Positions 1 to 64,000 of a DNA stretch of 64,000 bases are shown here, piece by piece. Under the pieces are notes generated by a model. The model was given only the letters and a program-made list of their open reading frames with translations, searched no databases and was not told the DNA's origin. Source of the DNA: a virus. Taxonomy: Duplodnaviria > Caudoviricetes. Location of the stretch: positions 96,001-160,000 of the IMG/VR virus record IMGVR_UViG_3300013426_000014; one strand, 5' to 3'. Made by a program: the position numbers and the translations under genes. The first letter of the stretch is position 1. Each line of letters begins with the position of its first letter.

Positions 1-522
1 CAGGAGCCGCTTTTATTCTGGCTGCAGGGTGTCGACCAGCAGACGGTCAAGGTGATAATAAGCTGGATAACGGGCGCGCTGCTGCCGGTGATAGCACTCG
101 GCATGACCGGGATGGTCGCGTCGAATATCAGGCTTGTCCGCGGCGCCGGTGATTTACCAGCGGAGAATGACGCTGAAACCGCGGTGAATGTCGCCGATAA
201 GCCGGTTCTGGGGATAGAACATGCGCATCCTGCCGAAAACTCAGACGCGCCGGTCAACGATACCGATGCTCCGGATTCGTCGGATGAAAATGTGGCATCA
301 GACTTGTCAATTGACATGGATGAAGCCGCGCCCGTGAATTCTGCCGACGAGACGGTTGTCGATGATATGAAGTTTCCTGTAGAGGAAACTGCCCGCACGA
401 CTGGCCCGACTGATGACGCGGTCAAGATAAACATGCTTGAACCTGTCATACCGGACGACGGATCATCCGGCGGGCGGACCGAACTTCGTTTCATGCCGCG
501 GAATCTTAAACGTAAAAGGTAA
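1..522 (+). CDS. Membrane protein with acidic low-complexity C-terminal tail (5'-partial)
   Basis: Frame is open from base 1 (QEPLLFWLQG...VIISWITGALLPVIALGMTGMVA hydrophobic helix), followed by a D/E/P-rich tail and a TAA stop. Confidence 0.7.
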   Translation, partial: QEPLLFWLQGVDQQTVKVIISWITGALLPVIALGMTGMVASNIRLVRGAGDLPAENDAETAVNVADKPVLGIEHAHPAENSDAPVNDTDAPDSSDENVASDLSIDMDEAAPVNSADETVVDDMKFPVEETARTTGPTDDAVKINMLEPVIPDDGSSGGRTELRFMPRNLKRKR

Positions 523-540
523 CATCTTGACATATAATAA

Positions 541-569
541 AAAATGGACGGTTGAATACCGTCCATTTT
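541..569. terminator. Bidirectional rho-independent terminator
   Basis: AAAATGGACGGT-TGAAT-ACCGTCCATTTT perfect hairpin with A/T tails between convergent genes. Confidence 0.85.
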
Positions 570-588
570 CATATACGCGTTCTGGTTG

Positions 589-1365
589 CTACCCTATCAT
601 CACCTTGTTCGACAGCACTGAGTTTATCTGAAACGGGTCCGGGTTGCTTGGCGTCACCGGATATTTCTGTGCGATTTCCGACGCGAGCAGTCTGAGAACC
701 TTGACCAGCTCTTCGCCCAGTACGGCGTGCTGGTTGGCGCCGGCGCCCAACGTCACGGTGTTGCCGTCCAGGTTGATTGTCGACCCGTCCACGTTCACTT
801 CGTTCGCGCCAGATATGTTGACGGATGAGTTGCCCGCTATGGTTATTTTCCCGTCCTGCATTTGTATCACGCTCGACATCCCCTGATGCGCTATTGTCAG
901 CATAGAGTCCGGCGTTATCTGTATATAGCTTCCCTGATAGTATATCCTGAGACCGGTGTTCACCTGGAACACGACCGCGAGATCCCGTTCTGAGTCATAT
1001 GCCAACACATGCGTCCCCTGATAGTCATCTCGCACGAAATCGGCGAGATTCGGGTCGACGTTCTGAATGGCGGTGTATTCACCCGACAGTATGTCGTCAT
1101 TCGCGAATCTTACCCTGACTATCGCGCCGACTTTAGGGACAGACAGCGATCCGGATCCGATCCCGTTGCCGGCGCTGCCTGAGAATATGTTCGAACTTAT
1201 CGGCGCGAACCACGGCAGCATGTCATCCGGTATACTGTAGTTTCCCTGATCGTCCGTCGAGTCGAGCAGACCGAACACACGGACCTTACACCGTCCCGAA
1301 AAGTCCGGGTCGTCCGTGTAAACGACCCTGCCTATATAGTTTTGTTTCGACAGGTCTTTTGTCAT
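589..1365 (-). CDS. Baseplate hub/spike protein, T4 gp5/VgrG-like OB-fold plus beta-helix
   Basis: YIGRVVYTDDPDFSGRCKVRVFGL...PWFAP...SVPKVGAIVRVRF OB-fold signature; C-terminal beta repeats and AVLGEEL. Confidence 0.8.
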   Translation of the reverse strand: MTKDLSKQNYIGRVVYTDDPDFSGRCKVRVFGLLDSTDDQGNYSIPDDMLPWFAPISSNIFSGSAGNGIGSGSLSVPKVGAIVRVRFANDDILSGEYTAIQNVDPNLADFVRDDYQGTHVLAYDSERDLAVVFQVNTGLRIYYQGSYIQITPDSMLTIAHQGMSSVIQMQDGKITIAGNSSVNISGANEVNVDGSTINLDGNTVTLGAGANQHAVLGEELVKVLRLLASEIAQKYPVTPSNPDPFQINSVLSNKVMIG

Positions 1366-1369
1366 ATTG

Positions 1370-4777: not shown

Positions 4778-4780
4778 CCG

Positions 4781-6403
4781 TTATTTCGATTTCTTTTCCG
4801 TCTCGTCCGTGTAAGGCGCCGGTCATTCCCTCCGTTTCAGTATGAACTCCGTTTTGTATCCGACCATCTTGTCGTCGTCGCTTTTCGGATGTTCGTACCT
4901 GTATGTGACACCGGCGACGTAATACCAGCCGGAGTAGAATATGTTAAAGCCCGCCGCGATTTTGTCGCCATTGACTACTTGCGCCATAGTGTTTGACGGC
5001 ATATATAGGATCACCGGTATTTTCTCGCCGCGTATTATCTGGGTATTCAACCCATTGACTTTCACTTTAATATAGAGTTTGTCCAGCTCCTTGCTATTTA
5101 TCAGGTTGTGATATTCCGCCCTATTATAGTTCGCGTGCGTATTGCCTGACCATGTGTTCGTGCTCATCATGTCCTCTGAATCGTCGTCTGACATGACGTA
5201 TTCGATTCCGGATCACGGTTTTCTGATATATATGTCCTTGTAACTGTAGTTCGCGCGGGACTGTCTTTTCGCCGACGCGTCCGACGCGGAGCTGTCTGCC
5301 GCCCTGCCGCGGAGGATGATATGGTCATTGATTTTTGTCTGGTTATATGCCGGGACGTTCGACAGGTTTTCAAGCGGGTCGTCTTCGTTGTTGTATATGT
5401 TCTGGTTGTGTCTGAACGCGCCGGATATGATCTCTGTACCGATGTCGAACGTGACCGACGTCGACTTGTTCTCGACCGACCAGTCTGTTATGTAAAATAC
5501 CGTGTTCTTGAACACTTCGTTGTTTATCAGCCCTTTATAACAGATTTCGGCATTCTTCTGTTCCGACGATTCCGGATTCGGGTTGAGCCACGCTGTGCGC
5601 ATCGCCGACGTGATCGCGGCCACGTCCATGCTTGTGTCCGGCGAGTTGATGCACTTGTTCACCTCGACGTACGTCAGGTTGTAATATGGATCAAATCAAG
5701 CGTCGTAAAATGAAGTCTCATCCTTCCATGAGTGCCGCATCACATTTTTGATGTAGTCACGGACGGACTGTGTGTAGCACAGTCACAGCTGCGTGTCGTC
5801 CGACTCGTCCTCGTCGTTGGACGCGAATCCTGCGCCCAGCCGTCGGGCGGTGTCCTTCATCGCGTCTTTCGACGTTCCGATGAATCCGAAACAGCTTTTG
5901 TCTGTGTCAAGGCCGGGTATGAACATGTCGCCAGACATCGATATCGTCTGCTTTCCCGCCCCCGTCACCCCGGCGCCGGACGTCGTCATGCTTTTGATGA
6001 CGAAATCACACCGCAATGTCTTGTACACATCGTTCTTCGGCCGGAGGGCGACCGATATCATGTCGCCGTCCTTCGGCGTGTTTTTTATCAGGAACGTGTT
6101 CGCGTTCGGACGGATGACGAGCGTGATCCGCGGCAGGAACCCGGTCGCGTCTATTGAGAATCATGATATGTCAGATTGTTCGACGATATAGTCGTTCACG
6201 CGGATTACCGGAAGTTCGAAACCCTCTGTCTGAGGGACCGATCTTGTCTCGCCCGGGTTTTCCATGTTGGGTATCGACAGCTCGTCGAGCTCTATCGTCG
6301 GCTTGATTTCCGGATCGGCGTACACGCGGACGATTCCGTCCGGATCCTGCCCGGCGGACGCGTCCGACGCCGTGCCGACTCCGGTGAATTTGTAATCCGC
6401 CAT
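4781..6403 (-). CDS. Baseplate hub protein (T4 gp27/GpD-like), 540 aa with TGA=Trp
   Basis: Four track ORFs are in one frame joined by TGA (6161, 5783, ~5697, 5213, 4823); C-terminus SGWYYVAGVTYRY...YKTEFILKRREWP is typical of hub proteins. Confidence 0.7.
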
Positions 6404-6404
6404 A

Positions 6405-7584: not shown

Positions 7585-9636
7585 TTACATTATGTTTTTG
7601 ATGGCCCATGGCGCCAGTACATGACTTGACAGTCCGATGCTGGTCGAGCTCGCCGCGGCAAGATCGGATATCGTGTCGAGATCGTTCTGTGCCGACGAGT
7701 TCGTGAATTTGAGTGTGCTACCGGTGGACTGATATCCCGGCTTGAGCCGCATCTCACCCATCGATCTGCCGTTCCGCCCTTGCCCCGTGATGACCGGTCC
7801 AATCAGGTCCGGCTTGCTGGACGTGCTCTGTGTTTGGTCATCGACCTTTGTCTGCTTGTCTGCGGATGACGACATGTCGTCGGATATCTCGTATATCCGG
7901 CCGGCGCCGCGGTTGAACATTGACTCTATCGCGTCCCTGTCACGCGGCATGCCGTGCTTGAGTGTTATCGTAGCGGTGAATCCTATCGGGAAGTCGTCTG
8001 GTCCCAACTCGTCGTCGAAGTCGATCTTAAGACTGTCACACACGAGGTTCCCGATCATCGCTATGGGATTCATCGGGTTCCCTATTGTCAGGTGTCAGTC
8101 GCCGATCGGCTCGCCGGTGAACAACGCTCGCATGCCGGTGAGGTATGGCACCGTGCCGACATTATGCCGCATCTCGTTTCCGAGCACCGGCATCATGTGT
8201 TTTGTTATGTCCGACAGCGTCATGTTATCTATATTAAGACCCTTGAACGGATCTCCGCTCGAGAATATGCTTGACACCGCCGTGCTGAGCCATGTCGCCG
8301 CGTCCTTGAGCACCGATCCGAGACCGGAAAGCAGCTGTTTTCCGACATCGCCGATCTTGTAGTCCTGTGACGATTTGCCGGCGAGACGCTGCGAGAATAT
8401 GTCAACTAACGTCTCAGCCGCACCGGGCGTGCGCTGCCCGTCCTTCCCGTAAGTCGTGAGCAGCTGTCCCTTGTACATCTTCGAGAAGAACGCGCTGTTG
8501 TTGAAAGGGTATCTGTTCGGCTCGAGCATAAACCTGTGTGCGCCGCCGAAGAACTGAGCCGACGCGGAGCACATGGTCATTATGTTGCCGAGTATGTCGA
8601 GTAGCGCGGCTTTCGCGTTGATTCCGCCGACCGGCCTTGCGACGTAATGGAATTTCAGTGTCAGCCCGTCCATTGAAAACTTGAGACCGCGCTTCCGCTT
8701 CATCACCTTGTTTATGACGTTGACAGGCCCGATCACCCTGTTTTCGTAAGGCCCGTTGCTGTATGGATCCGGTGGCAGGCCATTCGCCTCCGCCGCGTTG
8801 AACTCGTCCGGATTGAATATTCCCATGACGTCGACTATCGATCTCGCATGCTGTGATATCCAGTTGTTTGACCCGAACATGTTGAGTGTTTCCTCCATGC
8901 CCTCTGTCTGACCGGTGACGTCTCATATGTCAGACTGTATCTCGTCCCATTCAAGACCCGTCGTGAAGCTGAGTATGTCTGACAGTTTGTTGTCGGTCCC
9001 CCCGCCGAAATATGTCACCGCCGTCGCGAGCGGATGCATGCGGGTTTTTACGTCCGTCCCGCCGCTTTCCTTCCCGCTCTTATCGACTTCCGTACTGCTT
9101 GTCATGGTGGGGTAGTTCAGATTGTCGAGTATCGGATTTGGATAACGTCGCAGCGTTATCATCCTGTTGTTCGGTATCTTGTTCCAGTATTTGCAGAATA
9201 CAAAGTCCTGATATTGGTACGGCGTTCTTGATCACGTATCGCCGTTGCCCCAGTTTATTATCGCGGCGGTGGTCGGGTTTTTCGCGTAACCACCTTTGTC
9301 GTCTGTCCCGTTTATCTCGTAATATTTACGTGATTTGGAGCTGTCAATCAAGTATTTGCCGCCATGCGCCCCGTACAGTCTCGTCATCGTGTACGGATTC
9401 ATCAGAGAATTCGTGACGGCCCACGGTGAGTTGCTGTCATTATGCATGCTGTCCTTAATTGCAGCCGCCCTTGTTTTCGCCGCGTCGTCATTCTTGATGC
9501 TGTATTCATCCGGCACGATACCGGTCGTCGCGAATGCCTTGATATCCGACATCGGTGACACTATGTAAGAATCACTCGCGCTCTGCTCGAATGATATCAC
9601 GCGGTCCAGCCGCTTGTCCCATGGAGATCCGGCCAT
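7585..9636 (-). CDS. Baseplate/tail-tube-cap-like structural protein, 683 aa with TGA=Trp
   Basis: Four in-frame ORFs joined by TGA at 9232, 8923, 8095 (GEPIGD-W-HLTIGNPMNPIAMIGNL); tube-like C-terminus ELGPDDFPIGFTATITLKH. Confidence 0.7.
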
Positions 9637-9647: not shown

Positions 9648-11153
9648 TTATTTTTCCTTTCATACGTACGGCATGTTGAGATGCACGTCCGCCGAGTCGT
9701 TTATTATCGCGTGGCTGTCGTCCGGTATCTCGCTCGTCACGATGTCCTGTATGCGTGCGGAGACACTCGTGTTCGCTGTATCGTACAGTCTGATGTTCGT
9801 TACTCACATGTCCGACGCTGGTATTGCGAATCCTGATATGGAACCGCCGTTCCACCGCATCGGCGACTCGACGACACTGTACGTCTTAAGCTTTGGATCC
9901 GCCCCGTACAGGGTGACATCCGCGCTTTTCCCCATGTTGATCACGATGCCGTATCATGCGTCATTCTTGACTTGCGTCCGGAGATCCACGACAGTCTCGT
10001 CCTCCCCGCACGTGATAGACACGAACCTTCCGCTTATCAGCCGTATCTCGATTCCGTCGACACCGTTACCCTTCAGCAACGTATAAACCAAAGCCTTTCC
10101 TATCTTGTATCCGTCGAGTGACGGCCAGTTCGACGGCAGTTTTCTCGTCACATCCGCCGGGACGGTGAGCGTATTGTCTTTGACTACGCCGTACAGTTTG
10201 ACCGCGCCCCGTTCCGCGTACGCCGGCCCGTCCTCCATCAGTCCTGCCGGGAGCGCGACCGATGTTGATCTCGCTGTCCGGACCACTTTTCCGAATTTTA
10301 CCGGGCTCATGTCGGATGATCCGTGAAGGTTCACCCACGCCGACAGACAGCGTGTGTCGTCCGCCGTTCATGAGTCTTTCACCATGTATGTGACGACTGA
10401 CTCGTCTGACACCGCCATGCAGTCGTAATATGACCGCGCGACGAGATGTCCGTCGACCTTCAACCCGTCCGGCATGTTGACCGCGACCGTCACTTTCCTT
10501 TGTATTGATCCGGCGGTTTTCGACGCCGGGGACTTCTTGTATGGGTCCTTCACTGATGCTATCAACCCCGACGTCTGTGGATCATCGACGAGATCCTGTA
10601 TAGTTCCCGCTATCTCGCTGCCATATTGTTTCTCTGTGCTGACTGTATTCACGTCGATCGCCTCCGCCAGCGCGTCACCAGTATGCCTGTGCGCGGACGG
10701 CTGGTATTTCCGGCATGACAGCTTATATGACGTCACTTGCCCCGCCGTCTTGCCGGGGTTCATCGACGCGACCTCTCACAGCTTCTCCGTCATCGGTATC
10801 CATATTATGTCGCCCGCCTGAGGCACGGTCGCGTCATTCGACACAGCCGCCTCCCATGACTTTGTGTCAATTTCCAGTGTCAGCGGCGATTGATAGTCCA
10901 TGCCCAGCGTCGAGAATATGTATGAGCTCTCATCATACGACGTGTTCGAGTACATCATCTTGATCTCGAGCGGGCATTGCTCGACATTATACAGTGTGTA
11001 GTCGTGAAACAGGAAGTCTGATTCGCCCTTGACCGGCGTCGACCTGAAGTACATGACGTCCACGCCGGCCGTCTTGGTCGCGGCTGAATTAATTGTTGAC
11101 AGTATGCTGTTCGCGAACGCCGCGGCGGCGTCCTGCAGGTTTGTAGTCGACAT
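9648..11153 (-). CDS. Neck/head-completion protein (T4 gp14-like) with C-terminal extension, 501 aa with TGA=Trp
   Basis: PQAGDIIWIPMTEKL-W-EV resembles the gp14 PKEGDLIYFPM motif; fragments joined by TGA at 10776, 10368, 9954; TAA at 9648. Confidence 0.7.
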
Positions 11154-11179
11154 ATAAAAAAGAAATGACGTCTTTGCCT

Positions 11180-11187
11180 TATTTATC
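11180..11187 (-). promoter_or_regulatory. Putative late promoter GATAAATA
   Basis: About 26 nt upstream of the gp14-like ATG; the same octamer recurs before other structural operons. Confidence 0.6.
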
Positions 11188-11219
11188 GACAAAGACGTCA
11201 AATCCTGGTTTTTAACGCG

Positions 11220-12800
11220 CTATATGAGCGAGTTCGTTGATCCGTCCGGCGCGAGCTTCACAGAGAATGTTTGGTATGGGAAACCGCGCTGCCTGTATAT
11301 CTTTTCCCTCTCTTTGAAATGTCTGTATAAGTAGTTGTCCTTCTGATACCCGGTCCCGGCCCGCATGTCGTCACCGAAGTCGATGAAAATCACTTTGTCC
11401 TTGCCGACGGAACGGCGCATGCCGCGGCCGATGAGCTGCGATATCTGGACCTCAGACTTCGTCGACTCGGCGAGGAATATATTGTATATGTTCGACACAT
11501 CGATACCTTCTGAGAATGTGCCGACCGAGGCGACGATCACGGTGTTACCGTCCGCGTCGTCCTCCATCCTATTCTTCGCGTAATCGCGGGTGCTTGAGTC
11601 AACACCGCCGTCGACATAGAACACCGTCTTGTCCGTGTTCTCCCTCAGCCACTCGTATATCCGCCTGCCGTACTCATTCTGTATGTCGGAGAAAATGACC
11701 AGCGAATTTTTCGTCGTCTTCGCGATCATGCCCGTCACGTAATTGAACCGCGCCCGTGACTTGCGCGCGATGTCCTTCTCGAGGTTGAGAAGCTTGCCGC
11801 CGGCGGTGATGTCGTCCCTGTCTTTTGTACATCTCGCGTCATACAGCGCGTTCTTGCGGTCGTCCGTCAGGTAGTCCATCGCGATGCCGACGACATTGAT
11901 AGGCGTCGCGAACTGCTCCTTGTTGATCAGGTCGTAACTTGACAGCCTGAATACGATCGGCCCGATGTATGCCTGCTCGATGAAACTGTCGTATGTTCCC
12001 TCTTTCGGAAACGTGCCGGTCATGCCGACCTTATATCCGGCGTTGTAACATTTTTTTATGATCCCCTTAATGGATGTCGCCGTGGCGTGCTGTACCTCGT
12101 CTATCAGTATGCAGTCGATATCCTTGAAGAACTCGACTCCCTTCTTGCACAGCGATTGGTAGTTGCCGAATATTATGTTGTCGTCATACGTCTTCTTCTT
12201 TTTTGCCTTCGCGTGAATTTCCGAGTACGTCCAGTCGGTCGGCACGCCGTTCCCGCTGTCATACTCGATGAACTTCTCCGCCGACTGAGACGTTAGGTTC
12301 GTATTCGGCGTCACGAACAGTATCTTGCGGAGGTGTAACATGTCCTTCATATACCGGAAGAGCAGGTACGACACGAGCGTCTTGCCACCGGACGTCGAGA
12401 TCTCAACGCAGCAATTGCGGTATGACAATATCGAGTACGCCGCCTGTATCTGGTAGTCTTTTGGCTTCTTGTCGTTTTTCGCGAAAAGGTTATCTGCATA
12501 TTCCTTGAATCCGCCGAACGATATCGAGCAATTCCGTATCTTGCAGTCGAATCCGTCGATGAACTCAATGTCATATCCATACTCCTTGCAGACGTTGACG
12601 AGCTCGAGATACAGGCCGCGTGGTATGATGCAGCCGTTCGACATGAAGCTTTCCTCCACGTTTGCGTACGGCGCCTTGTTCTTGATGATCCACCAGTTGT
12701 TTATCTTTTTGGTGAAAGACATCTCGATCTGCCGCCGCTCGATCTGCGTCATTTGTTCGAGTATTATGAATTTTTCGTCTGATGTAAGTCTCGCCGTCAT
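11220..12800 (-). CDS. uvsW: SF2 DNA helicase, UvsW-like
   Basis: YQIQA Q-motif, ISTSGGKT Walker A, DEVQH, GMTGT, QLIGRGMR motif VI; no in-frame TGA. Confidence 0.9.
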   Translation of the reverse strand: MTARLTSDEKFIILEQMTQIERRQIEMSFTKKINNWWIIKNKAPYANVEESFMSNGCIIPRGLYLELVNVCKEYGYDIEFIDGFDCKIRNCSISFGGFKEYADNLFAKNDKKPKDYQIQAAYSILSYRNCCVEISTSGGKTLVSYLLFRYMKDMLHLRKILFVTPNTNLTSQSAEKFIEYDSGNGVPTDWTYSEIHAKAKKKKTYDDNIIFGNYQSLCKKGVEFFKDIDCILIDEVQHATATSIKGIIKKCYNAGYKVGMTGTFPKEGTYDSFIEQAYIGPIVFRLSSYDLINKEQFATPINVVGIAMDYLTDDRKNALYDARCTKDRDDITAGGKLLNLEKDIARKSRARFNYVTGMIAKTTKNSLVIFSDIQNEYGRRIYEWLRENTDKTVFYVDGGVDSSTRDYAKNRMEDDADGNTVIVASVGTFSEGIDVSNIYNIFLAESTKSEVQISQLIGRGMRRSVGKDKVIFIDFGDDMRAGTGYQKDNYLYRHFKEREKIYRQRGFPYQTFSVKLAPDGSTNSLI

Positions 12801-26859: not shown

Positions 26860-26863
26860 AATA

Positions 26864-34990: not shown

Positions 34991-35458
34991 ATGGGTGTCA
35001 AACTAAATAAACTTTTCAACTCCGGCTGAAACGCGGTCGATTATGGTGAGGAACGGTCGAGAAACGCCGACATAGCGGTGCTGCCGCTCGTCAGTGACAT
35101 GTACGAGGAAAGCACGACGTCCGACATAACGGGCGTCATCACACGGAAGAGTATGAACGAGGATATGTACAGGGTGTTCACTGCGTCGCCGTGATTTGAG
35201 AAGTATTCGGAGGATGGCAGACGCGTCGACAAGAAAGACATGCCGTCTGTTTATTTTTACTTTCGAGACGAGATGATGAAGAAGAACGACTACAATCTCG
35301 TTGAGGTGCTGTGCGCGATATGCGAGTTTTTTGACCTTAATTATTCGTATATGTATAATAATGTGCTCAGCCTTGCCGATAAGTCGAAGGTTCTCGAAAT
35401 ACTGGAGGACGATTACGGGCTGTCGGACAGATTCGGCAAAACGAACAGGCTGTTTTAA
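34991..35458 (+). CDS. Hypothetical protein (weak resemblance to T4 gp33-type late-transcription accessory factor), 155 aa with TGA=Trp
   Basis: ATG at 34991 in frame with 35240..35458 through TGA at 35027 and 35192; VEVLCAICEFFDLN helix; lies next to gp47/46. Confidence 0.5.
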
Positions 35459-43807: not shown

Positions 43808-43864
43808 AATATAAAACCTTATAAAACCTCAAATCATTATATTATTGACATGCCTTGTTTTTTC

Positions 43865-43872
43865 GATAAATA
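43865..43872 (+). promoter_or_regulatory. Putative late promoter GATAAATA
   Basis: About 23 nt upstream of the neck gene ATG at 43896. Confidence 0.6.
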
Positions 43873-43895
43873 TTGGTAGAAATACACCGCGCAAA

Positions 43896-44627
43896 ATGAC
43901 AAGAAAGGAACTGATATCAACCGTCAGCGATGACATAACGATCAGCGGGCAGATGGAGTTGAATATACCGGAAAAAGAGATCAATCGTATAATAGACCAG
44001 GAGGAACGTGTCGCGTACAAGACATGACGCGACACCGTCGAGGTACAGTACGCCGTCATGAATCCTGCCGCGTTCGAGACGGAGGAGTTCAAAGGCAGCA
44101 GATCGATACAGTTGCCGAAGTGCGTGTGGGGGATAAACATGTTCAAGGAGATAAAGGACGGGTCGAGATTCTTTGGTATCAACGACATGGATCTCACAAT
44201 GGACAAGGTGTTCGGGTCAGACCTGTTTCTGAGTCCGTTCTCCAGTGACATCATAACGACGCGGACGGTGACATGGTCGTGATTCGATCTCGCGAAGACG
44301 TTCACACTCACCGACATAGGCTTCAGATTTAATCAGAACTCACACCGGATAACAGTGACAGGACGCACGCCGCGGTTCCCGGTTGTAATACAGGCGTATG
44401 TCGGGATACCGGAGCAGGATCTGTTCGATGATTATTATTTTCAGCGTCTTGTCATCGCGAGGTCGAAGATGCAGCTTCACCGCATGCTCAAGACGTTCGA
44501 CTACCAGGTAGTCGGCGGCGTGCAGATCATAAACACGCTAATGGACGAGGGAAAGTCTGAATATGATTCGATAATCGAGACGAAGCAGAAGCAGGACCCG
44601 GCGGACTGGTTTATCATGACGCCATAA
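43896..44627 (+). CDS. Neck protein (T4 gp13-like), 243 aa with TGA=Trp
   Basis: Three fragments joined at TGA 44025 and 44280; LPKCVWGI and YFQRLVIARSKMQLHRMLKTFDYQVVGGVQI resemble gp13. Confidence 0.7.
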
Positions 44628-51000: not shown

Positions 51001-53599
51001 TACCAGTGTTGTGGGAAGAAGATGATTCCGCGAAGTCCGCCTTTATTGTCCAGCGTGGCACAGCCTGTGGCTCACCGTTCTCCCAATCACCTCTATTGCG
51101 GAATGAGAAATAGTATTTGCGTTTGTCCTTATCACCGGGTTTCTTCGGCGCCTTGCCTTTTGGATCCAGCTTCGTTCAGAACGCAGATGAGTCTTCTGAT
51201 ATATTATCTTTTGACATCTTGTAGAAGATGCAGTCATCCGCGTTTCATTTCGCCGGGGTGTTATCTGGCGTCTCTGTCGGCTTCTGCATCTTACTGAACT
51301 CACCGTATAACCTATAGTTACGTTTCGGATATGTCATCGACGATGTTCCTTGCGGACCCATACCGGCGTTAAGATAGACAAAACACGTTTCCTTGTTCTC
51401 TGTACCACAGTTGACATAATCATAGTACTTGATCTTCGGTACGATAATAACCGCTTTCTTGTTTGTGCCTTTTTCATCGAGTACATTAAGGTATCCCGTC
51501 ACGACCATGACTGGAATGGTTGCGGCAAGTTTATCTATAGAAATAGCATTATTCTCTGATATATTGTTGCTGTTGAATAGATTAAGCATTTCTGCCGTCG
51601 TATCACGGTAAAGAATGTAGTTATTAAGAACCTCATCATTCTGCAGTGCGCGGTTATAGACGCGGATCTGCTTAAGCGATATCTCCGCCGTCTGCTTGCC
51701 CGTGAACTTTATCGTCGACGGAGTGACGAAGCTGTCGTCCGCCGTATAGTTAATCGCGCCCGATATGACGCCATTAACAAATAACAATATGACGCGGCGC
51801 CCCGTGTCAGCGGCCGGTTTAATGACGAACGACAGACGGATGTTCTCACCGGACTTATACTTGACCGACACCTTCTGCCCCGCCGCCGTTATAAGCGACG
51901 CCTCCGACGCGGTCACGGTGATACCGGCGCCGGTCGGCTCGCCGTCCGTGCCCGTCCGCCGCATCTCGCACAGGACGGCGGTGTCGTCATTAACGTTCAT
52001 CGTGTTGAACTCGAACTCTATCGTCCGGCCGGCGTTCATTATCACGGTGTCGTCAGAGAATGGCATGAAGTTTTTGAAGTCAACGGACGCGCCGTTGTTT
52101 ATGTTGAGTCTGTTGTCCGACCATCCGGACGCGGCGGACCAGTCGAAATTCTGAAAATCCGCGACGCAAGTCGTCCTCGTGCCCGGTATCTTGTATGTTC
52201 AGTCCGCCTTGTTCGACGAGCTGTTTGTCCTGCCGTTCGCGGCGAACGCGAAGATGAGACCGTTGTCCTCGCCTATCTCGCCGATGCCCATTGTGTTTTG
52301 TGCGACGTCGATGTCGATGTCGCGGACGTAATTGTCGGACTGTATTCTCACCTTCCCTGGACCTGTGAACGGCGGCGTGAACGTCACGCTGTCCTGTTCA
52401 CCGGCAGAAATCGACCGCTCCGCTATGAGATCGGTTGCTGATCCTGTCCCTTCCGTGAGATATATCTTGACTGGTATGTCGGTCCTTGAATCAGGGGAGT
52501 ATACCGCGTAATACAGGGTGTACGGCGTGTATTGTGTGAGATCGTAAAGCGTTGGCGCCTTATTCGCCCCGTCAGCCGTGATCTTGACCTTGTCTTTCGG
52601 TATTACCGTCTTGATCGCCGACATGAACGGGCCGATTCCGGAACGAGTGAACATGAAGTCTCTGTACAGCATGTCGGAATAGAACCTGGTCGCGCCGTCG
52701 CCGGCGATGATGTACGCCCTGTACTGAACGGTGTGCACGCCAGCTGCCGCGTTCTCCAAATTGATCATCCTCGTTTTCGTCATGCCGCCCGGCTGCAGCG
52801 TCCCCTCCGACACGGTCGAGTCGAGCTCGCCATCGACATACCACTCCGTATACGCCGTGCCGTTACCCGCTATGTTATACACAACATCGAGCGTCATCTT
52901 CTCATCAAGATCCTGTACGACGGATATGTCGGCCGAATCAGTCAGCGTCAGGTTGATGACGTTAAAACTAAATGGATATGTAGCGGAAACCTTGTGAACC
53001 TGTCCGGTAATGGTAACGGTGACGGTCAATGACGCGTTAATTGCGACGCCGTCCTCATAAAGGAAGTCGTCAAGCTGTATCGTGACATCGGTGTTCGACG
53101 CCGACAACGGCATCGATCTCGTCACCGCCGGACGCACGTCATTCGCGTAACGCACGACATAAGTGCAGTTGACCGCCTCGCCGGTCGGTATCGGCGATCC
53201 AGTCGACGTCTGCACAAGTGACCATTCGAACCTGATTCTGTTGTTAAGTTCACCGGTAAACACATACTGTTTTTCTGTCCCGTCGAGCGGTTTTATCGAC
53301 GCCGCGTATTTGGACGGGACCTCGAAATAGCCAATGACGAGATCCGCGGTGTCGGCATGATTCTCCGACTTGTCCGCCGCCCATTTCTCGTAATCCGCCT
53401 CTGTCGAGAACACATAACACTGTGACGACTCCATATCTGTGTAGAAATAACCGGCCCTTTTCTTGAAGTTGTCCTTGATGTATTTCTGCACGACGGATCC
53501 GTCGAGCGGCAGGTTTTCTGTGGTGTCGTCGCCGACGCCCCAATCGAGCACGCTGTTGTTCCAGTCAATCGGTTTATCCCACGCCTTCTTCTTCGCCAT
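45095..53599 (-). CDS. Giant tail-fibre/adhesin: LamG-like + CotH-kinase-like + BspA (LRR_5) repeats, 2834 aa with TGA=Trp
   Basis: Seven track ORFs in one frame broken only by TGA; QGTSSMTYPKRNY, KADFAESSSSHNTG, FMGKYNFNNDKS, YDNDTILG; LRR_5 units such as IPATVTSIGRYAF. Confidence 0.82.
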
Positions 53600-53614: not shown

Positions 53615-53803
53615 TTATTCGTTGTTTTTCCACGGATCCGTATTGATCCACGGCTTGTCGTTTATCCAGTATCCGCGTCCGTAACAGGAGCGGACCGCCT
53701 GTCATACAAGACGGTCTCCCTTATAGATCGCGGTGATGTTTCTTTCCATCCCGTCGACGAAGCAGTGAACGCCCGTCACGTTTTTGCCGTCTTTATGTAT
53801 CAT
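53615..53803 (-). CDS. Small Trp-rich fibre-associated protein, 62 aa (absent from track)
   Basis: IYKGDRLV-W(TGA)-QAVRSCYGRGYWINDKPWINTDPWKN. Confidence 0.75.
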
Positions 53804-55708: not shown

Positions 55709-57622
55709 CTAACTGATATTATTCTTTACGTAATCCTTCCTGTACGTCCTGCCGCGGAGCGTGACGTTGATGACACTCGATAGATTGTCGATATCGTCGT
55801 AATACTCGACGCCGGACGGGGACATGAACGACTCCGCGTTGACCGACCTGAACACCGGCAGTAGGTCCTGCACCTCCGTCTGCGTCCCGGCCGCGTCGGT
55901 GAGCTTGCGCGTCAGAATGATATCGCCAAACTCATCCAACCCGTAACTGCCGTCACCGTAATACGTCGAGTTGTTCCGGTCGGCATCGAAATAAACTGAC
56001 ACGGAATCAACACCGTCGATCCCTTCGATGGCCGCGACCAGATCGGACGACGGGATCCTGTCCCGTCTCGTGTTCGATATAAGGTAATCAGAAACGGCCG
56101 ACACGATCTCGTGCTTGACATTCTCAAAAGTGTAGCCCTCTCACATCTGTATGAAAATGTTGACTGCAAATTGTGGCATCTTCGGGTCGATGATCTCATT
56201 ATCCACCGTTATGATACGCTGACCGGACTCCTCTATCAGGTCAAGAATTCCCTTCTTCTCATCATCCGTTAGCTTGAAACATTTCGGGTCGCATGTAAAG
56301 TAATTTTCAGACACGCCCATCCGCTTCGATATGTCGGGTACAAGGAAAAGATATATGATATTGTCATCGAGCTTCGAGTCACGGACCGCCGCCTCCGCCT
56401 TGTCAAGCTCAGTCTCCGCGTCCTTAAACGCGGCAAGCTTGTCCTGTGCGAGAAGAGAGTTGACACCGGTCAGGTTGACCTGCGACTTATACTCATTTTG
56501 CACACGAAGGTAGTTGCTCATCGCCACGCCGTATTTCGTCTCGGCGGTCGAATCCTCGTATGTAGAGAAGCCGGATATCGTATCGATGACTGAGAACATG
56601 TTCAGTTTCCTCAGAAAATACTCATAATTGGTCGCGTTCGCCAAAACGAACGATCTCGATGCGTGCGGGGCGATGAGCCGCGTCACCGGTATTACCTCCG
56701 GCGTCGCCCCGAACAGGACGTCTGTCACGGCGGATATCGAAAATATCTCATTGAGCGACACCTCCTCCCCGCGGTCGTTCCAACCGTTCGACTCGAACGT
56801 CCACGCGTCGTTATCGGACACGGAAACGGACTCTATATTGCCGGCGTCGGCGGACGACACGAGATACTCGACCTTGATCGTTGACCCCTGATCCGGGACA
56901 CGTCCCTGAGCGCCGGTGCCGAAAAATATGTCTATCCCGCCGGACGCGCCGGTCTTGACTATGCACGCTTTCTCGTCGAATGTCATGTCGAGCAGCGACT
57001 CGACGACACGCCACCGCTCGCCGTTCACGTACACATTAACGAAGAACTGATCGATGTTGCCCTCTCCGCGAAACGGGACATTGAAGCTGTCGAGCGCGTA
57101 ACCCGAACCCGTGAACTGCTGGTATTTGACCGCGCCCTGTACAATAGGGACATCGATCGTCGACTCCGACGACCCGACTATCACGTACATCCGCTCCGAC
57201 GGCATGTTGAGTACATACTTCATGCCGTTCGCGTAATTCTTTATGACCGTGTAGTTCGGTATAATCACCGTGTCGCCGTCGTAATCGGTCGCGGATCTGC
57301 AGGTCAGTCTGACCGTTCCTCTGGCGGCGACACCCCTTGACGGATTATGCCCGGTCAGAGTGGCGAGCCCGCGGACCGAACGAGGGTGAAAGGCCCTTGT
57401 TATGTTGAGCTCGTTTATCGACGTCGATATATAGTACAATATCATTCTGCCGATATGCAGTATCACTTGTACTATCTGGAAGAACGGCGACGCCGTTGTG
57501 AACGTCTCACCATTATCTTTGTACACGCCTTTCAGATAGCCGATCACGTCCTCCCTCATCTGCGAGAAACGCAGACGGGAACGCTTGAATATGTTGAGCT
57601 CCTCGCCTTTCTTGCCTGCCAT
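55709..57622 (-). CDS. Baseplate wedge subunit (T4 gp6-like), 637 aa with TGA=Trp
   Basis: SVRGLATLTGHNPSRG, IFFGTGAQGRVP, YLVSS, VLANATNYEY; joined at TGA 56141. Confidence 0.85.
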
Positions 57623-57644
57623 TCGCCGAATATTATTTCTCAAA

Positions 57645-57695
57645 TATTTATCAATCTGAGCCGTCCGGCCAGCCGGGGCGGAAAACCGATAAATA
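57645..57695. promoter_or_regulatory. Divergent pair of putative late promoters GATAAATA (57645-57652 minus; 57688-57695 plus)
   Basis: Each is about 22 nt upstream of its ATG (57622 and 57718). Confidence 0.65.
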
Positions 57696-57717
57696 TGCAA
57701 AGAACATAACCCGTAAC

Positions 57718-58059
57718 ATGAAGAGACTGATTATTTTCATATTGTCCGCTGTGTTGCTCGCCGCGTGTGGGCCGGGGAACAAGGTGAACACCGGGACGGA
57801 TCCGGTGGCGTCGTCGATGCGGCTCGTTGAGTACAGGATGATCGGTCCATGACAGATCGACTCGATGATGACGGCGGAAAGACTGCCGGAAATCGAAAAA
57901 TGGACGCGGACCCTGCTCGTGTCGGATGAGACGAAAGATCCGGTGGAGCAGTGATTGACGACAATGAAGACAGACTCGACAAAGACCGACTTCACGCTGA
58001 CGCGTCTCGCCACGGCAGACACGTCGATGCTATACAGAAAGATAATATACAGATGGTAA
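57718..58059 (+). CDS. Lipoprotein, 113 aa with TGA=Trp (absent from track)
   Basis: MKRLIIFILSAVLLAA-C lipobox; two in-frame TGA; TAA overlaps the next ATG. Confidence 0.75.
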
Positions 58060-58694
58060 TGAATTACGGATGATCGCCGTCGCAGCTGGACGGCACCGAA
58101 CATATAGCGGCATATGACAACGCCGACATGCCGGATGCATTCTCGTTTAAGGACGCGATCCCGTCGGCGCTCAATCAGGGGTCGACATCGACATGCGTCC
58201 CGCACGCCTGCTCCGCGCTGTATGACTGGATGGAGTCGTTGAAGGCCGGATCACCGACGTCTTACGGGATGTCAATATACAACATATATGACAGGCGTCA
58301 AAACCGGCCGGAAGAGGGAATGAGTTTCAAGAACGCCCTTCACGACTTGCTGCATATCGGCGCGGTAAAGCCGGATGAGTACAAACGGCATGATTTCTCG
58401 AACGCGTGGAGGATCAAGGAGTACGCGATGGTCAGAAACATCATATCGCTCAAGAACTGTGTCATGATGAACGGCCCGGTCATGATAGCGACACTCGTCC
58501 GCGACCCGGATTCAACGAAATACTGGAACGGCGCCGGCAATTACGGCGGGCATGCTGTATGCTGTGTTGGATGAGACCGCAAGGGATTGATAATCAGAAA
58601 TTCATGAGGCAGGAATTGAGGAATCGGAGGATATACCCGTATGCCTTATGACGAGTTCGGCGCCGTGCTGGAGGCGTGAACCGCGATATTATAA
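58059..58694 (+). CDS. Papain-family (C1A) cysteine peptidase, 211 aa with TGA=Trp
   Basis: NQGSTSTC catalytic Cys, GGHAVCCVG-W-D, IRNS-W-GRN-W-GIGGY; five TGA (58071, 58572, 58605, 58617, 58677). Confidence 0.9.
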
Positions 58695-58955: not shown

Positions 58956-58959
58956 CGCG

Positions 58960-61900
58960 ATGTTCGACTATTCATCGATACGGCTTTTCGACAAGAAAGG
59001 CAAGGCGCTGCCGGCGGACTATGTAAAAACGCCGGACACGTTCTTTTATATAAAATCCGAAATAAATTCTGGTCATGACGCGCTGCTGTATCCGGTGACA
59101 GATATGGACGGCGGGTTGACGAAATTCGCCGGCATATGTGTCGACGACGGCGGTCTGCTGTTCACGGATAACACGGAACGGCGGGTCGACATCAGATCCG
59201 TCACGACAGACGATATCGTCTGCACAGCGACGCTCAAATCCGCCGACTATATTGAGCTGAACACCGCGGACGGCAAGGTATACGGGGTGAAGAACGTCAC
59301 GGCAGACGGTGTGCCGGCGATGTCTGGAACGGGCTATACAGTTCCGTTCCCTTCGGTAAAAATCCGGTCCCGTGTCAACTTCAGCCCTGTGTCGACTGGA
59401 CTTTTCGAGACGGAATGTGTGTACGCGCTTACCGAAACAGCCGGTAAATGAACGAAACAACGTGACGACCGGTGGAACCTGATGGGAGTGATAGATCCGG
59501 CCGACACAGAGTTCAGGTTCTTCTCCGTCGACACGACGACAGAGGAAATAAGTTACACGTCAAGCGTGACGCTCGACCTGTCTTCCGGCGGATACAGGTT
59601 CGATTTATGTTTCACCGCGGAAGATGAAGGTGTTTACGACGGGACGATGTATATATGCCTTGTCGACAAACAAAACGGCAACGAGCCGTATATGTTGGGG
59701 ACGGTCGCGCTGCACGGCGAGGCGGTCGGCGAGGATGAGCGTTTCAGGACGCTGCTGACAGATTTCGGTGTGCCGGATCCGAAAGAATACATCAGTACGT
59801 TGAAGGAGTCTTCCGTCGACGAGTCGAAACCGGATATGGCGCTGCTCAACAGGAAGAGCAAACAGCTGTTCCTGACATATCCCGACATATTCCCGTATGC
59901 CGGCACATATAAGGCGCTGGTGAACGCCGTGAAGTTTATGGGTTATGATGACATCACGTTCAAGGAGTGGTTCCGGACTATAGGGTCTGATGGCCCGTCG
60001 AAATATGTAACCTATGACATAACGTATGACGGAGGATCCGGAACCGTCCACTCGGCGGGAATCGAGGAACGGGCGGGCATGCGGAAGATGAACTGACTGT
60101 CGATGATGTACAGGCTCAACCGCGAGAAGGAGACGATGTCGGAAGACGGGACGCCCGATGTGTTCAATGTGTACGACTATGACGGGGACGAGCTTATGGT
60201 GAAGCTGCAGTCATTACGCAAGTGACTGGAAAAGAATATCATAGCACAGAACTGCCGGATAGTAGAGGTCGTCGGCGAGGGTGTGTACTTTGAACGTTAC
60301 CGATATGACATATATGGGACGGCGACGGAAAGCGAGACATATGACGCGGAGATGCGGCTGAGCCCGTATATCAAAGGCGGCACCGACACGCGCGTGCTGA
60401 AGGACGGGACGGCGCGGATAACGATCGGAGTAAGGGAGATCGACAGCGCGCTGACAGAACATGACATGTCGATGTCGGATCTGTCGGTCAGGAATGTCGG
60501 CGGATATGATCCGGAAGGGCTGTATATTGACAAGGAGTCGATGTCCGTCCGGAAAATGTCGGACGGGTATGACGCGGCGAAGGCGGATGATGGCTTGCAG
60601 ATCCCGCTCGACCGGACGTTCGGCCGTCCCGGCGGGATAAAATCGGTCGGCGTCAGGGCGAGCGTCTCATGCGCGGAGCATGTGTTCGCCCCGCCGTTCA
60701 CTGATCCGTCGAAAGGACGGATGCTGCTGAGGGACGGCGAGCTGACATTCGTGACGAGCGAGTGGGAAGGCAGGACCGATCCGATGGAGTGTGTATTCGC
60801 GGTGACGCCTGACATATACGTTGAATCCGCCGTCATCCGCGACCCGAACAAACCGTGACGCGAATCCGCGCTGTACACGGTGTCGGAGGGAGACGGAAAA
60901 TTCGTGATCGCGGACCAGTCCGGGAAAACCGTCGCCGAATCGACGGATTATGTAAAAATCAAGGACGGAAAACTCAGATACACGACGGCGAACAGGCACG
61001 GACTGCCGATGCTGATGTGCTCCGGCATGGCGCTGACAGCGGACGGGAAAGACACCGGCCTGATGAAAACGGGGTCGGAATACATAATCGACATCCGCGA
61101 CGGCAGGCTCGCATGAGAGAACACCGTGTCGGATCATCCGGAGTTCGTTTATCTCAACTTCAGTTATGACACGGCCGGCGGCGAACAGGATATAACGGCG
61201 AATTTTGTGTTCACCACAGACGGGATGATGACAGATGAGACTGTATACGACGGCGAATTCGTCAAAAGGTATCTCGCCGATCCCGACACGGCGTTCAATT
61301 ACAGGACCGATTTCTCCGTCGACGTGTACAAGGCCGGTGAATACGACGTTACTATGACGGGGCATGACGGATACGGCGGGACGTTCGCCGCGGCGGTATG
61401 TCCGAAACCCGCCGTCATATCGACGGATCCGCCAGAGGATTACGGGCCGGCGCCGAAATGGATCATACAGGGTATAAGTGCGGATCCGGACGCCGGCGTC
61501 ATCACATATGACGACATAAGCTACGCGGTCGATACGCCGAAACCCGGGCAGACATTGCTGCTGATGAACCTCGGCGACAGGTTCCGGCTGTCGGGCGCAG
61601 GCGGGTCATACACGGCTGAGCGGTGGGGATCCGCCGAATCGCAGGTGTTCGACATGAAAACGAAACGGGCGTATGACAACGCGGCGACAAGGAAATGATG
61701 CGCCGTTCGGGTTTCCGTCGTGTCACAGACGGACGGACGGCTAATATATGATCTGGACGGGTCGCTGTATGTCAATAACGGAAAGTATGATGTGAAGGTT
61801 GACGGCGTCGACGCCGGATTCGATAAGGCGGTGGCGGAATCGGCCGGCGTCTGGATAAGGGACAACGCCGTATATACGGGGACGGCGAAAGGATCGAGTA

Positions 61901-62241
61901 GCGGGATTGTACTTTCCCTTGATAAAATCGGGACGGCGTCATGGACGGACGGCAGCACCCCATATAAAAAAGGTCAGAACATCAGGATAAAGACGGATGA
62001 CGGGACCGCCGTATACAAGGTGACGGAGAATAAATCCGGAATCTTGACAGCGCGCGGCCGTGTGCCCCTTACCGTAAGTCAGAAAGCGGCGGTGACCTAC
62101 CAGTCCGTGGTCACGGAGATGATGACGGCCGGCGTCGATGCGGCAGAAGAGACATCTGACGGATACTGTGTCGTATTCACAGACGGATCACCGGCGGTCC
62201 CGTTTATCGATGACACATTCTCGATGATTGTTACGGATTAG
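58960..62241 (+). CDS. Baseplate wedge-like protein (gp7-like), 1093 aa with TGA=Trp
   Basis: Six track ORFs in one frame joined by TGA; IFPYAGTYKALVNAVKFMGY motif; TAG at 62239. Confidence 0.7.
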
Positions 62242-62252
62242 GATGATTTGGA

Positions 62253-62410
62253 TACGCCGACTTCTCGTCCTACACGTCGAACTCCGACTACTTCTACATC
62301 AACCTGTACGGTCCGGGGACGACATCTTCGACGTTAATCTCGGGAAACGTACAGATGAAGTGGACGAAGGTCGCACAGGCTGTACACAAACTGAAGGTCA
62401 TCCTGGACGG
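62253..62410 (+). repeat. Left copy of a perfect 158-bp inverted repeat
   Basis: Exact reverse complement of 63238-63395; encodes YADFSSYTSNSDYFYINLYGPGTTSSTLISGNVQMKWTKVAQAVHKLKVILDG. Confidence 0.95.
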
Positions 62411-62783
62411 CGCGTCGGGCACGCCGAGCGGCGGCAATCCGTATCTCTACGCAAACTATGATAATAATAGTAAACTGCGATATGGCATATGCGGTAACAA
62501 CATACAGCAATCCGGAACAACTGTATATTTTTACATAGATAACAGTACAGAACTGGATACATGACAAATATGCTTAAATGATATAAACGCCAAAGCGTCA
62601 ATGGAAATGGGAATAACTATATCAAATGACGCATCAGTGATATGGGACTCCGAATATATACACACTTCCGGAACGGACTACCAATCTGTCGGCAACATAA
62701 TACAAGATTTAATAAACACGTATAATGCAGCGAGCACATCAAATCCGAAGACGTTCACGTTGTCGACACAAGATTTTACTTAA
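62253..62783 (+). pseudogene. Silent alternative C-terminal cassette for the fibre gene on the opposite strand
   Basis: No N-terminal part or obvious promoter; repeat-encoded segment followed by a divergent domain (TGA at 62562) ending FTLSTQDFT*. Confidence 0.75.
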
Positions 62784-62812
62784 TATAATGGTATGTAACT
62801 GTATATTTACAA

Positions 62813-62838
62813 AAAAGTCCGGATTACTCCGGACTTTT
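62813..62838. terminator. Bidirectional terminator at the centre of the invertible segment
   Basis: AAAAGTCCGGA-TTAC-TCCGGACTTTT. Confidence 0.85.
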
Positions 62839-62861
62839 ATAAATAGTTGAATACCGTTACA

Positions 62862-64000
62862 TTAAGTAAAATCTTGTGTTGATAATGTAAATGTCGATTC
62901 GCCGCTATTATATGCTGTTATCAGGTTTTGTATTATTGTACCGACTGTCTGATAGTCGGTTCCTCCGGTAGTACTTGCGTAGGATGAATCCCATATTGTA
63001 ACACCATCTTCTGTTATAGTGAACCCGCATTGCATCGACAGCATATTATCATTATATGTCATCATCTGTTGTCACGCGCTCAGTTCTGTTGAATTATCTA
63101 CATAAAAATACGCGTTTAATGAATTGTCCAGATTAAGGCTATTGCCGCATACGCCACATGACGTTTCACTGCCGCCAGAATTATCAACGTACTTTAATTC
63201 CGGGGTTGCACCTGTTTGAAACCCGGTATAGATTGTCCCGTCCAGGATGACCTTCAGTTTGTGTACAGCCTGTGCGACCTTCGTCCACTTCATCTGTACG
63301 TTTCCCGAGATTAACGTCGAAGATGTCGTCCCCGGACCGTACAGGTTGATGTAGAAGTAGTCGGAGTTCGACGTGTAGGACGAGAAGTCGGCGTAAATGT
63401 ACAGGTATGAACTGCCCGTTCCCGATATTGTCTTCGAACCGGTCGACGCGCCTGACTTCGCGGCGGACGCTGACGTTGTCGACAACCCGTATTTTACCGA
63501 GGATGAAATACCGCTTGTTGCAACTTTTCATCCGGATCTGCTCGTATCCGTTATGCGCACCGTATACGCGAAATCGCCGGAAGACGTTTGATTCTGTGCG
63601 GAAGCGTTCCAAGAAGGTTTCGAAACCACATTGGACGTCCATGTCATTTTCGCGGTTTGTATCACATTCGTGGATGACGTGCCCGGCCCGTATAATTTAA
63701 TGTTGAACCAGTCAGAACCAGTTCTCGCGGAAAAGTCCGCGTATAGATAAACATAGTCATTCCCGGTTTTACTTACCGAAAAATCAGACGCGCTGCCTGT
63801 CGTCGCTTTCGATTTCGCGTCAGATGAACCTGTAGTGGATAATCCGTATTTGACATTGGAAGATGTGTATTCAAGACCCACTTTTCATCCAGTGTTGCTT
63901 GTGTCGGTTACATATAACAAATATGTGAACTCACCGGAAGTGGTCTTGCTTTGTTCGGATGCGTTCCAGTAAGGATAGAGCACGCCAGCGGTTCCGACCT
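62862..64000 (-). CDS. Fibre/adhesin with ~119-aa BACON-like tandem repeats and variable C-terminus (5'-partial), TGA=Trp
   Basis: Frame is open to the window end through TGA at 63885, 63528 and 63072; repeats WNAS...VTDTS..GWKV...KYGLSTT...YADFS; ends FTLSTQDFT*. Confidence 0.82.
63238..63395 (-). repeat. Right copy of the perfect 158-bp inverted repeat
   Basis: Exact reverse complement of 62253-62410, inside the expressed fibre gene. Confidence 0.95.

Follow-up and report, generated by a model that had tools for sequence, protein, structure and literature searches.

A 64,000-nucleotide stretch of viral DNA (bases 96001–160000 of the single linear 269,322-bp IMG/VR virus contig IMGVR_UViG_3300013426_000014; hereafter the window) contains many reading frames that are broken by TGA, which raises the question of whether TGA is a sense codon in this phage and, if so, which amino acid it specifies, which tRNA decodes it and how recoding came to be found in a genome of this composition. 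A sequence-only reading had proposed that TGA encodes tryptophan (Trp) throughout the window. The contig has a CheckV completeness estimate of 87% and a GC content of 50.3% (42–55% along the window), confirming that the genome is not AT-rich. The evidence set out below makes it very likely that the window is part of a T4-module jumbo phage from gut metagenomes in which UGA would be decoded as Trp. Judged from its sequence, the phage belongs, as a GC-rich representative, to a recoded clade that has a distant relationship to Lak phages; a mobile group I intron conceals its predicted suppressor tRNA.

Under the standard code (table 11) the open reading frames (ORFs) of the window were fragmented, and reading TGA as sense fused them into longer frames, the longest being 2871 and 2834 amino acids (aa); the second of these (45095–53599) is the continuous 2834-aa gene that the sequence-only reading had described. 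Across the contig, greedy ORF coverage rose from 79.3% with table 11 to 90.1% with TGA as sense, and the median ORF length rose from 191 to 304 aa. The control codes with TAG or TAA as sense reached 80.6% and 83.3%, so that the comparison of coding density under tables 4 and 11 gave a gain for TGA with no similar gain for the other two stop codons. Because long spurious ORFs arise at 50% GC when only two stop codons are left, the gene set was composed of ORFs scored by codon usage that had been trained on long table-11 ORFs. It held 206 genes with 275 in-frame TGA codons against 785 TGG, and 96 of the genes contained at least one TGA. Within the window, 102 in-frame TGAs were distributed over 27 of the 37 genes and made up about one third of the Trp codons. 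Together with the fused frames and the gain in coverage, these codons bear out the proposal of window-wide recoding; TGG, which aligns like TGA in the comparisons below, is used for Trp as well. Greedy longest-ORF calling with code 4 over-counted TGA at 50% GC (508–627 against 275) and was replaced by the codon-usage scoring.

It had also been stated that every gene ends in TAA or TAG. For genes called with TGA as sense this is true by construction, and the support for the statement comes from the 110 TGA-free genes, which terminate in TAA (84) or TAG (26). In standard-code relatives, TGA terminates 7–19% of ORFs.

The identity of the encoded residue was read from two standard-code relatives, G001 (IMGVR_UViG_3300028833_000054; 364 kb, 35% GC) and G003 (323 kb, 28% GC), neither of which gains coverage when TGA is read as sense. 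All proteins were aligned to these genomes with TGA masked as X. The 87 TGA sites covered on the contig (127 alignment cells) faced W in 55 cells, Y in 21, F in 9, G in 2 and C in 2, a distribution resembling that of TGG sites in the same alignment (W 306, Y 59 and F 43 of 525 cells) against a background W frequency of 1.1%. The 44 sites inside the window (68 cells) faced W 31, Y 10, F 6, G 2 and C 1. Summed BLOSUM62 scores opposite TGA were 559 for W, 226 for Y, −219 for C and −271 for G, and the in-window sites ranked alike. Deeper alignments were available for two genes. The TGA at codon 144 of the SbcD-like nuclease corresponds to W in 111 of 117 homologues and the column holding codon 66 is aromatic (F 49, V 29, Y 28, W 5), while TGA264 of the large terminase (TerL) corresponds to W in 120 of 120 homologues, in a column that is invariant in alignment A1. 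The motifs cited in the sequence-only reading were all present with TGA at the expected place: AGD-X-YD and LYP-X in the SbcD-like gene (35458–36561), VG-X-D and NS-X-G in a papain-like candidate (57765–58694), and GD-X-HLTIGNP and LV-X-QAVRSC in two further genes described below. The alignment of TGA columns thus gave mostly Trp, as had been foreseen, and from the residues facing TGA, the BLOSUM62 ranking and the SbcD and TerL columns we read TGA as Trp and not as glycine, cysteine or selenocysteine. Code-25 phages, which use TGA for glycine, do exist, and ARAGORN by default names the split tRNA described below ‘SeC(tca)’; against any of these three residues stand the rarity of G and C opposite TGA, their negative BLOSUM sums, and the length of that tRNA (73 nt), whose short variable region is not selenocysteine-like. 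We therefore give these assignments almost no probability. A comparison among paralogues was also made: its six-frame version was dominated by repeated DNA translated out of frame and was set aside, and on the curated gene set the comparison covered 25 TGA sites with no clear partner residue, a low-scoring paralogue family having been dropped by the gene caller.

The same columns bear on whether the TGAs could be real stops in genes that have been broken up, are in decay or depend on read-through at a low level, with the codon not reassigned. The modest surplus of TGA towards the ends of genes would fit such an explanation. However, essential genes have TGA in columns where Trp is invariant (terminase W264, SbcD W144, portal, baseplate), the coding signal continues past each of the approximately 100 in-frame TGAs of the window alone, close relatives share the TGA usage, and a dedicated tRNA(UCA) is present; taken together these observations make real stops extremely improbable.

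Decoding of UGA would require a tRNA with a UCA anticodon, which the sequence-only reading had predicted to lie outside the window. Default ARAGORN found 33 tRNAs on the contig at 202–222 kb, including tRNA-Trp(CCA), and none with UCA. In intron mode the program called a tRNA(tca) at genome 206860–207225, inside the phage tRNA cluster and ~47 kb beyond the window, with a 293-nt intron (genome 206893–207185) after position 34, that is, between nucleotides 34 and 35. The predicted gene was thus located, though split by an intron. When joined, the two halves form a normal 73-nt cloverleaf with the anticodon loop CU-UCA-AA and discriminator G73. Of the genuine tRNAs in the genome, the one nearest to it in sequence is the phage tRNA-Trp(CCA) (68% identity), from whose anticodon loop its own differs at position 34 only (U34 in place of C34).

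Relatives of the tRNA locus were reached through the adjoining conserved DUF7873 gene in gut metagenome assemblies. One of them, L143, carries an uninterrupted tRNA(tca) that is 100% identical to the joined exons 1 and 2. Comparison of this intronless locus with the intron-bearing L138 showed 96% identity on both flanks, with the two sequences parting exactly where the exons meet; the existence of the intronless allele defines this junction. Default ARAGORN additionally reports a false tRNA-Cys(gca) at genome 207154–207225, composed of the intron 3′ end and exon 2, which recurs in L138–L141 and could flag hidden split suppressors. BLAST of the tRNA region against the large standard-code relatives returned only generic T-arm matches and one tRNA-Trp(CCA), and an exact-pattern scan of viral contigs for the tRNA(UCA) 5′ exon gave no match.

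According to the model suggested by these data, the phage would supply its own UGA decoder, the tRNA(UCA), and the mature form would arise only after splicing of the 293-nt group I-type intron. The spliced tRNA would presumably be charged by the host tryptophanyl-tRNA synthetase (TrpRS), and the charged tRNA would compete with the host release factor RF2 at UGA.

The features of the insertion led us to conclude that the interrupting sequence is a mobile group I intron, a class assigned here from a structural model. The last base of the 5′ exon is U, which would form a U·G pair with the guide GGAG, and that of the intron is G, giving the junction CUU/u...g/CAAA; the guide is invariant in seven distinct intron variants. 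Across these seven variants, 42 modelled pairs (P2, P3, P4–P6, an extra hairpin, P8 and P7) were 98.3% paired, compared with 25–48% in slid-partner controls, and 13 of the 42 pairs (in P2, P3, P5, the extra hairpin and P8) were changed on both sides. P4–P6 was assigned by eye only, in a region that hardly varies among the variants. In the model P7 crosses P3 to form a pseudoknot, and its strands, G-(bulged A)-GAGUA and UACUCC, contain what we take to be the classical R and S elements with one flipped pair, according to the consensus and the Rfam alignment.

Scanning public contigs with a 21–23-nt intron core pattern recovered the same intron family from several unrelated phage contigs; no fewer than four distinct tRNA(UCA) genes, belonging to different phages, have it at the identical position. 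One of these phages is G019 (L147, IMGVR_UViG_3300045988_179403), a complete 103.5-kb phage of 34% GC that is itself TGA-recoded (coverage increases from 68% to 89%) and whose split gene is its only candidate suppressor. In the split tRNA(UCA) of G019 (L147:10972–11275; also L148–L150 and L152) the variable region is extended by a long arm whose hairpin loop, CUCCAAA, is the tRNA-Trp(CCA) anticodon loop; the suppressor of the phage studied here has no such arm. In another variant, L151, the P1 loop contains an ORF for a PD-(D/E)XK homing endonuclease (PF11645, E 1.8e-12; weak match to PDB 2OST). Because this ORF (L151:505–900) holds two in-frame TGAs, translation of the endonuclease would depend on the tRNA that its own intron interrupts. 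The cultured crAss-like Kolpuevirus ‘frurule’ (OQ198718.1) has an intron in DnaB that shares 88% identity with the P7′–P9 end of the tRNA(UCA) intron, scores 42 bits (E 4e-9) on Rfam Intron_gpI and carries a GIY-YIG endonuclease; at 76449–77529 of that genome (L162:511–1591) DnaB is annotated as two coding sequences flanking the endonuclease, with the intron in the gap between them.

Since the anticodon is complete only after splicing, the intron could also be viewed as an adaptive timer, in which regulated splicing of the pre-tRNA would set the code switch and the synthesis of late proteins. The presence of one intron family at the same site in at least four tRNA(UCA) genes, including that of the 103.5-kb recoded phage, would be in keeping with such a role, and control of suppressor tRNAs at the RNA level has been proposed for theta ribozymes (PMC10879173). 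However, an intronless allele in a 96%-identical relative and a homing endonuclease, as found in one variant, are both typical of a selfish mobile intron with no effect on its host gene, and no regulatory feature was found. We consider a timer function unlikely, and favour a mobile element residing in the suppressor gene. Elsewhere in this phage group, intron-mode ARAGORN gave two candidate split tRNAs in G001, tRNA-Leu(UAA) at 66120–66628 (intron of 423 nt) and tRNA-Lys(UUU) at 281289–281842 (intron of 480 nt), and made similar calls in G003; tRNA introns may be common in the group. No published account of a group I intron within an opal-suppressor tRNA came up in literature searches; intronic sequences in the tRNAs of jumbo phages are mentioned in a survey from 2026.

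The use of TGA is uneven along the genome. Its share of the Trp codons differed between regions (chi-square p = 2e-8): 0 of 27 at 0–11 kb, which includes the tail sheath, 223 of 700 at 11–170 kb, 13 of 94 at 170–200 kb and 13 of 110 at 232–257 kb. The genes for DNA polymerase (0 of 17 Trp codons), NrdD (0 of 11), DnaB, SbcC and the tail sheath are TGA-free, and TGA is frequent in most virion and accessory genes. The pattern would fit a need to translate certain genes before the suppressor accumulates, together with avoidance of the codon in some highly expressed ones.

This unevenness also argues against a host that itself reads TGA as Trp, in which case the phage tRNA(UCA) would be a supplement and not a code switch. 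Such an arrangement has a precedent in the code-4 phages known from Mycoplasma and Spiroplasma (Cook et al. 2024, PMC11210395). Phages that share the code of a recoded host have recoded codons in ~90% of genes (Borges et al., bioRxiv 10.1101/2021.08.26.457843), compared with 96 of 206 here, with the regional differences and the TGA-free DNA polymerase and NrdD genes noted above. The genome is ~50% GC and encodes T4-type baseplate genes and BspA leucine-rich repeat (LRR) proteins, and related contigs come from assemblies labelled as gut metagenomes. Known code-4 bacteria are AT-rich and have small genomes. A code-4 host is therefore very unlikely.

Several observations weigh against a phage-encoded switch to Trp that depends on a spliced tRNA(UCA). 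Both the decoding and the splicing are predicted from the sequence. TGA is over-represented near gene ends (11 within five codons of the end versus ~4 expected), and in four genes (genome 26277–28049, 64999–65826, 205102–205674 and 252613–253446) it directly precedes TAA or TAG; these end-proximal TGAs look as though they once terminated their genes and now have the following stop codon as a back-up, and some TGAs may still be old or leaky terminators. A search for a phage release factor RF1 or TrpRS, either of which the sequence-only reading had thought worth seeking, was negative: there was no match to PF00472, PF03462 or PF00579 (RF1, RF2 or TrpRS domains) on the 87%-complete contig, from which ~13% of the genome is missing. 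The division into early and late genes was drawn from gene function only and is not clean, in that the tail sheath, a late gene, is TGA-free, yet SbcD, primase and one helicase carry TGA. Neither the T4 late-promoter motif TATAAATA nor a contrast of upstream k-mers between TGA-containing and TGA-free genes gave a usable signal. Rfam Intron_gpI (RF00028) did not match the intron or a short variant at E ≤ 10; the Rfam group I seeds are not bacterial (Williams, bioRxiv 10.1101/2020.01.27.920355). Finally, a search of bacterial assemblies for hints of the host yielded three contigs that look mis-binned (in a Wujia metagenome-assembled genome (MAG), a Bacteroidales MAG and an unnamed MAG) and are uninformative.

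Recoding has been proposed to originate at low GC (Borges et al., bioRxiv 10.1101/2021.08.26.457843), and the sequence-only reading had put forward this ~50% GC phage as a possible undescribed recoded lineage, set against the association of cellular code 4 with AT-rich genomes. Close relatives have 47–52% GC and are also recoded, L143 having 77–98% nucleotide identity to this contig. In a TerL tree, the phage and L166 fell inside a clade with 100/99 support. Its other members are the 318-kb scaffold JS_HB1_S134_scaffold_565796 from the European Nucleotide Archive (ENA; 32% GC, recoded), which is the nearest large relative and whose terminase is on record only with TGA as W; L164 and L012 (31% GC, recoded); G016 (25% GC), in which coverage rises from 56% to 94% with TGA as sense; and L165 (38% GC), the lone member with the standard code. 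The sister clades on the tree all use the standard code at 28–42% GC. The tree is midpoint-rooted with thin sampling, and the order of events is inferred from it. Because the lineage nests in a low-GC (24–38%), mostly TGA-recoded clade, its high GC looks derived and the lineage does not look like an independent case of recoding; most likely, to judge from this topology, recoding arose in a low-GC ancestor and the studied lineage gained GC afterwards. The rise to ~50% GC would have lowered the TGA share of Trp codons, which is ~26% in the studied phage (275 TGA, 785 TGG) and 71% in G016. The lineage would thus be no exception to a low-GC origin of recoding. The proposal of an undescribed lineage is not supported as it was worded: the public record of a relative already gives a terminase translation in which TGA is W, and recoding of TGA to Trp in gut phages, together with phage suppressor tRNAs, has been published (Borges et al., bioRxiv 10.1101/2021.08.26.457843; Yutin et al. 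2021, PMC7886860).

Cellular code 4 is a genome-wide change found in AT-rich genomes in which RF2 has been lost. In Mycoplasmatales and some insect endosymbionts UGA is likewise read as Trp through a tRNA-Trp(UCA) with TGG retained, whereas the phage uses TGA in about half of its genes and its host presumably keeps RF2. The phage resembles the Jade and Agate clades and some crAss-like phages, large-genome phages of gut metagenomes that have in-frame TGA for Trp and a suppressor tRNA of their own. In published cases TGA recoding is biased to structural and lysis genes, and in these groups, as here, the recoded genes are mainly structural, occur in several modules and coexist with replication genes in the standard code. 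Three differences stand out: these recoded phages and their relatives are reported to be low in GC, whereas the studied lineage is at ~50%; the Jade ‘code change module’ combines the suppressor tRNA with a phage RF1 and TrpRS, neither of which was seen on the 87%-complete contig; and the suppressor gene is split by an intron in the studied phage.

The nearest GenBank phages are the Prevotella Lak megaphages (Devoto et al. 2019, PMC6784885) and one uncultured huge phage, by terminase (~32% identity) and, for Lak, also by a DnaB nucleotide match. Lak phages likewise come from the gut, use an alternative code and have many tRNAs, with ‘enigmatic introns’ in tRNA genes; however, they are ~540 kb in size and 26% GC and recode TAG where the studied phage recodes TGA, and their introns, which are unclassified, are reported in Tyr, Thr and other tRNAs.

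Among classical group I tRNA introns, that of tRNA-fMet is associated with the endonuclease I-Ssp6803I, which is of the PD-(D/E)XK type. Some variants of the phage intron likewise carry a PD-(D/E)XK endonuclease (weak 2OST match). The classical tRNA-Leu intron (Williams, bioRxiv 10.1101/2020.01.27.920355) occupies the same loop position, CUU/intron, after U34. The phage intron shares with the classical group I tRNA introns the U at −1 in a wobble pair and the terminal G, and differs from them in residing in an opal-suppressor tRNA, in having no Intron_gpI score, in its P7 (GAGUA/UACUC, with the flipped pair, against the classical GACUA/UAGUC) and in its extra hairpin between P6 and P7.

The genes themselves are those of a T4-like jumbo phage, with T4-type virion and replication modules, including hub/lysozyme, TerL and SbcCD, recognised by PHROG. 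According to PHROG and Pfam, the window encodes a gp5-like hub, a baseplate wedge, a neck/head-closure protein, SbcD/SbcC (gp47/gp46-like), DnaB, primase and helicases; elsewhere on the contig PHROG matches identified the tail sheath, portal, TerL, DNA polymerase and NrdD. No major capsid protein was recognised among the PHROG matches to T4-type modules. BspA-type LRRs and the distant similarity to Prevotella Lak phages are hints of a Bacteroidota host.

On the minus strand of the window, a 540-aa structural-module protein (4781–6403) has five TGAs, four of which face W in both standard-code relatives. It is followed by a 683-aa protein with three TGAs (7585–9636), which contains GD-X-HLTIGNP and whose codon 514 faces W in both relatives, and by a 517-aa neck/head-closure protein (Hc2, T4 neck protein-like; 9648–11201; PHROG 679, E 3.9e-16) with five TGAs, of which codon 416 corresponds to W in both. 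A DNA helicase (11220–12800; PHROG 16, E 3.8e-63) is TGA-free with four TGG. The giant 2871-aa ORF (18607–27222) contains 25 TGAs, is unbroken only with TGA as sense and has no family match; because it overlaps the next gene, a 1394-aa protein with five TGAs (26864–31048; codon 834 facing W in G001), its true start probably lies downstream of 27222. Also on this strand are the 560-aa DNA primase (42686–44368; PHROG 47, E 8.5e-29), a replication gene carrying two TGAs; the 2834-aa protein with BspA-type LRRs (45095–53599; Pfam LRR_5, E 2.2e-57), with 12 TGAs, of which codons 1113, 1489 and 1528 correspond to W in G001; a 62-aa ORF with one TGA, in LV-X-QAVRSC (53615–53803); and the 663-aa baseplate wedge subunit (55709–57700; PHROG 219, E 2.9e-26), whose single TGA at codon 520 corresponds to W in both relatives.

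The plus strand encodes a TGA-free DnaB-like helicase with seven TGG (33337–34938; PHROG 19, E 1.7e-47), the 367-aa SbcD/gp47-like nuclease with TGA at codons 66 and 144 (35458–36561; PHROG 100, E 1.6e-57; Pfam Metallophos) and a TGA-free SbcC/gp46-like ATPase with three TGG (36576–38243; PHROG 77, E 1.6e-73). The 309-aa papain-like peptidase candidate (57765–58694), whose family name comes from NS-W-G type motifs only, has the highest TGA share in the window (seven TGA and four TGG, or 7 of 11 Trp codons); its TGA codons 281 and 305 face W in G001 and the others face F or Y. A rival ORF lies on the opposite strand (57648–58553), and the homology sits in the plus-strand frame. Next is a 1093-aa protein with six TGAs (58960–62241), of which codon 422 corresponds to W in both relatives and codons 379 and 633 to W in G001.

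Two genes outside the window have unusual structures. The first ~158 aa of the terminase ORF (genome 72296–74407) align to the C-terminal part of an intein (consensus ...SHN/TTT), terminase homologues carry Pfam Intein_splicing, and from these alignments the gene appears to be interrupted or split. The DNA polymerase (genome 190058–193149) consists of two abutting ORFs of 493 and 536 aa, both TGA-free, the second of which matches PHROG families labelled homing/HNH endonuclease (E 1e-111).

Recoding of TGA to Trp in phages was already known, and the consequences of this case lie in annotation, in the detection of suppressors and in the relation of recoding to base composition. Standard-code gene calling breaks up about half of the phage genes, among them those for the terminase, portal and baseplate and for three giant adhesin-like proteins, and any catalogue entry for the phage under table 11 would for this reason be wrong. 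Surveys of code-4 phages have detected suppressor tRNAs (Sup-TCA) in only 35% (Borges et al.) or 15% (Cook et al., PMC11210395) of them, and an intron between nucleotides 34 and 35 that hides the tRNA gene from default finders offers a testable explanation for this low rate of 15–35%. That a 50% GC phage is nested among low-GC recoded relatives suggests that recoding, once established, can persist after the base composition favouring it has gone. A broader joint claim would be that anticodon-loop introns are general and overlooked in the opal suppressors of TGA-recoded phages, that splicing has been co-opted in some lineages as a code-switch timer, and that recoding persists through a rise in GC; we hold this combination to be unlikely. 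If it were true, anticodon-loop introns would explain why Sup-TCA is detected in only 15–35% of TGA-recoded phages, and low GC would be a requirement for recoding to arise but not for it to be kept.

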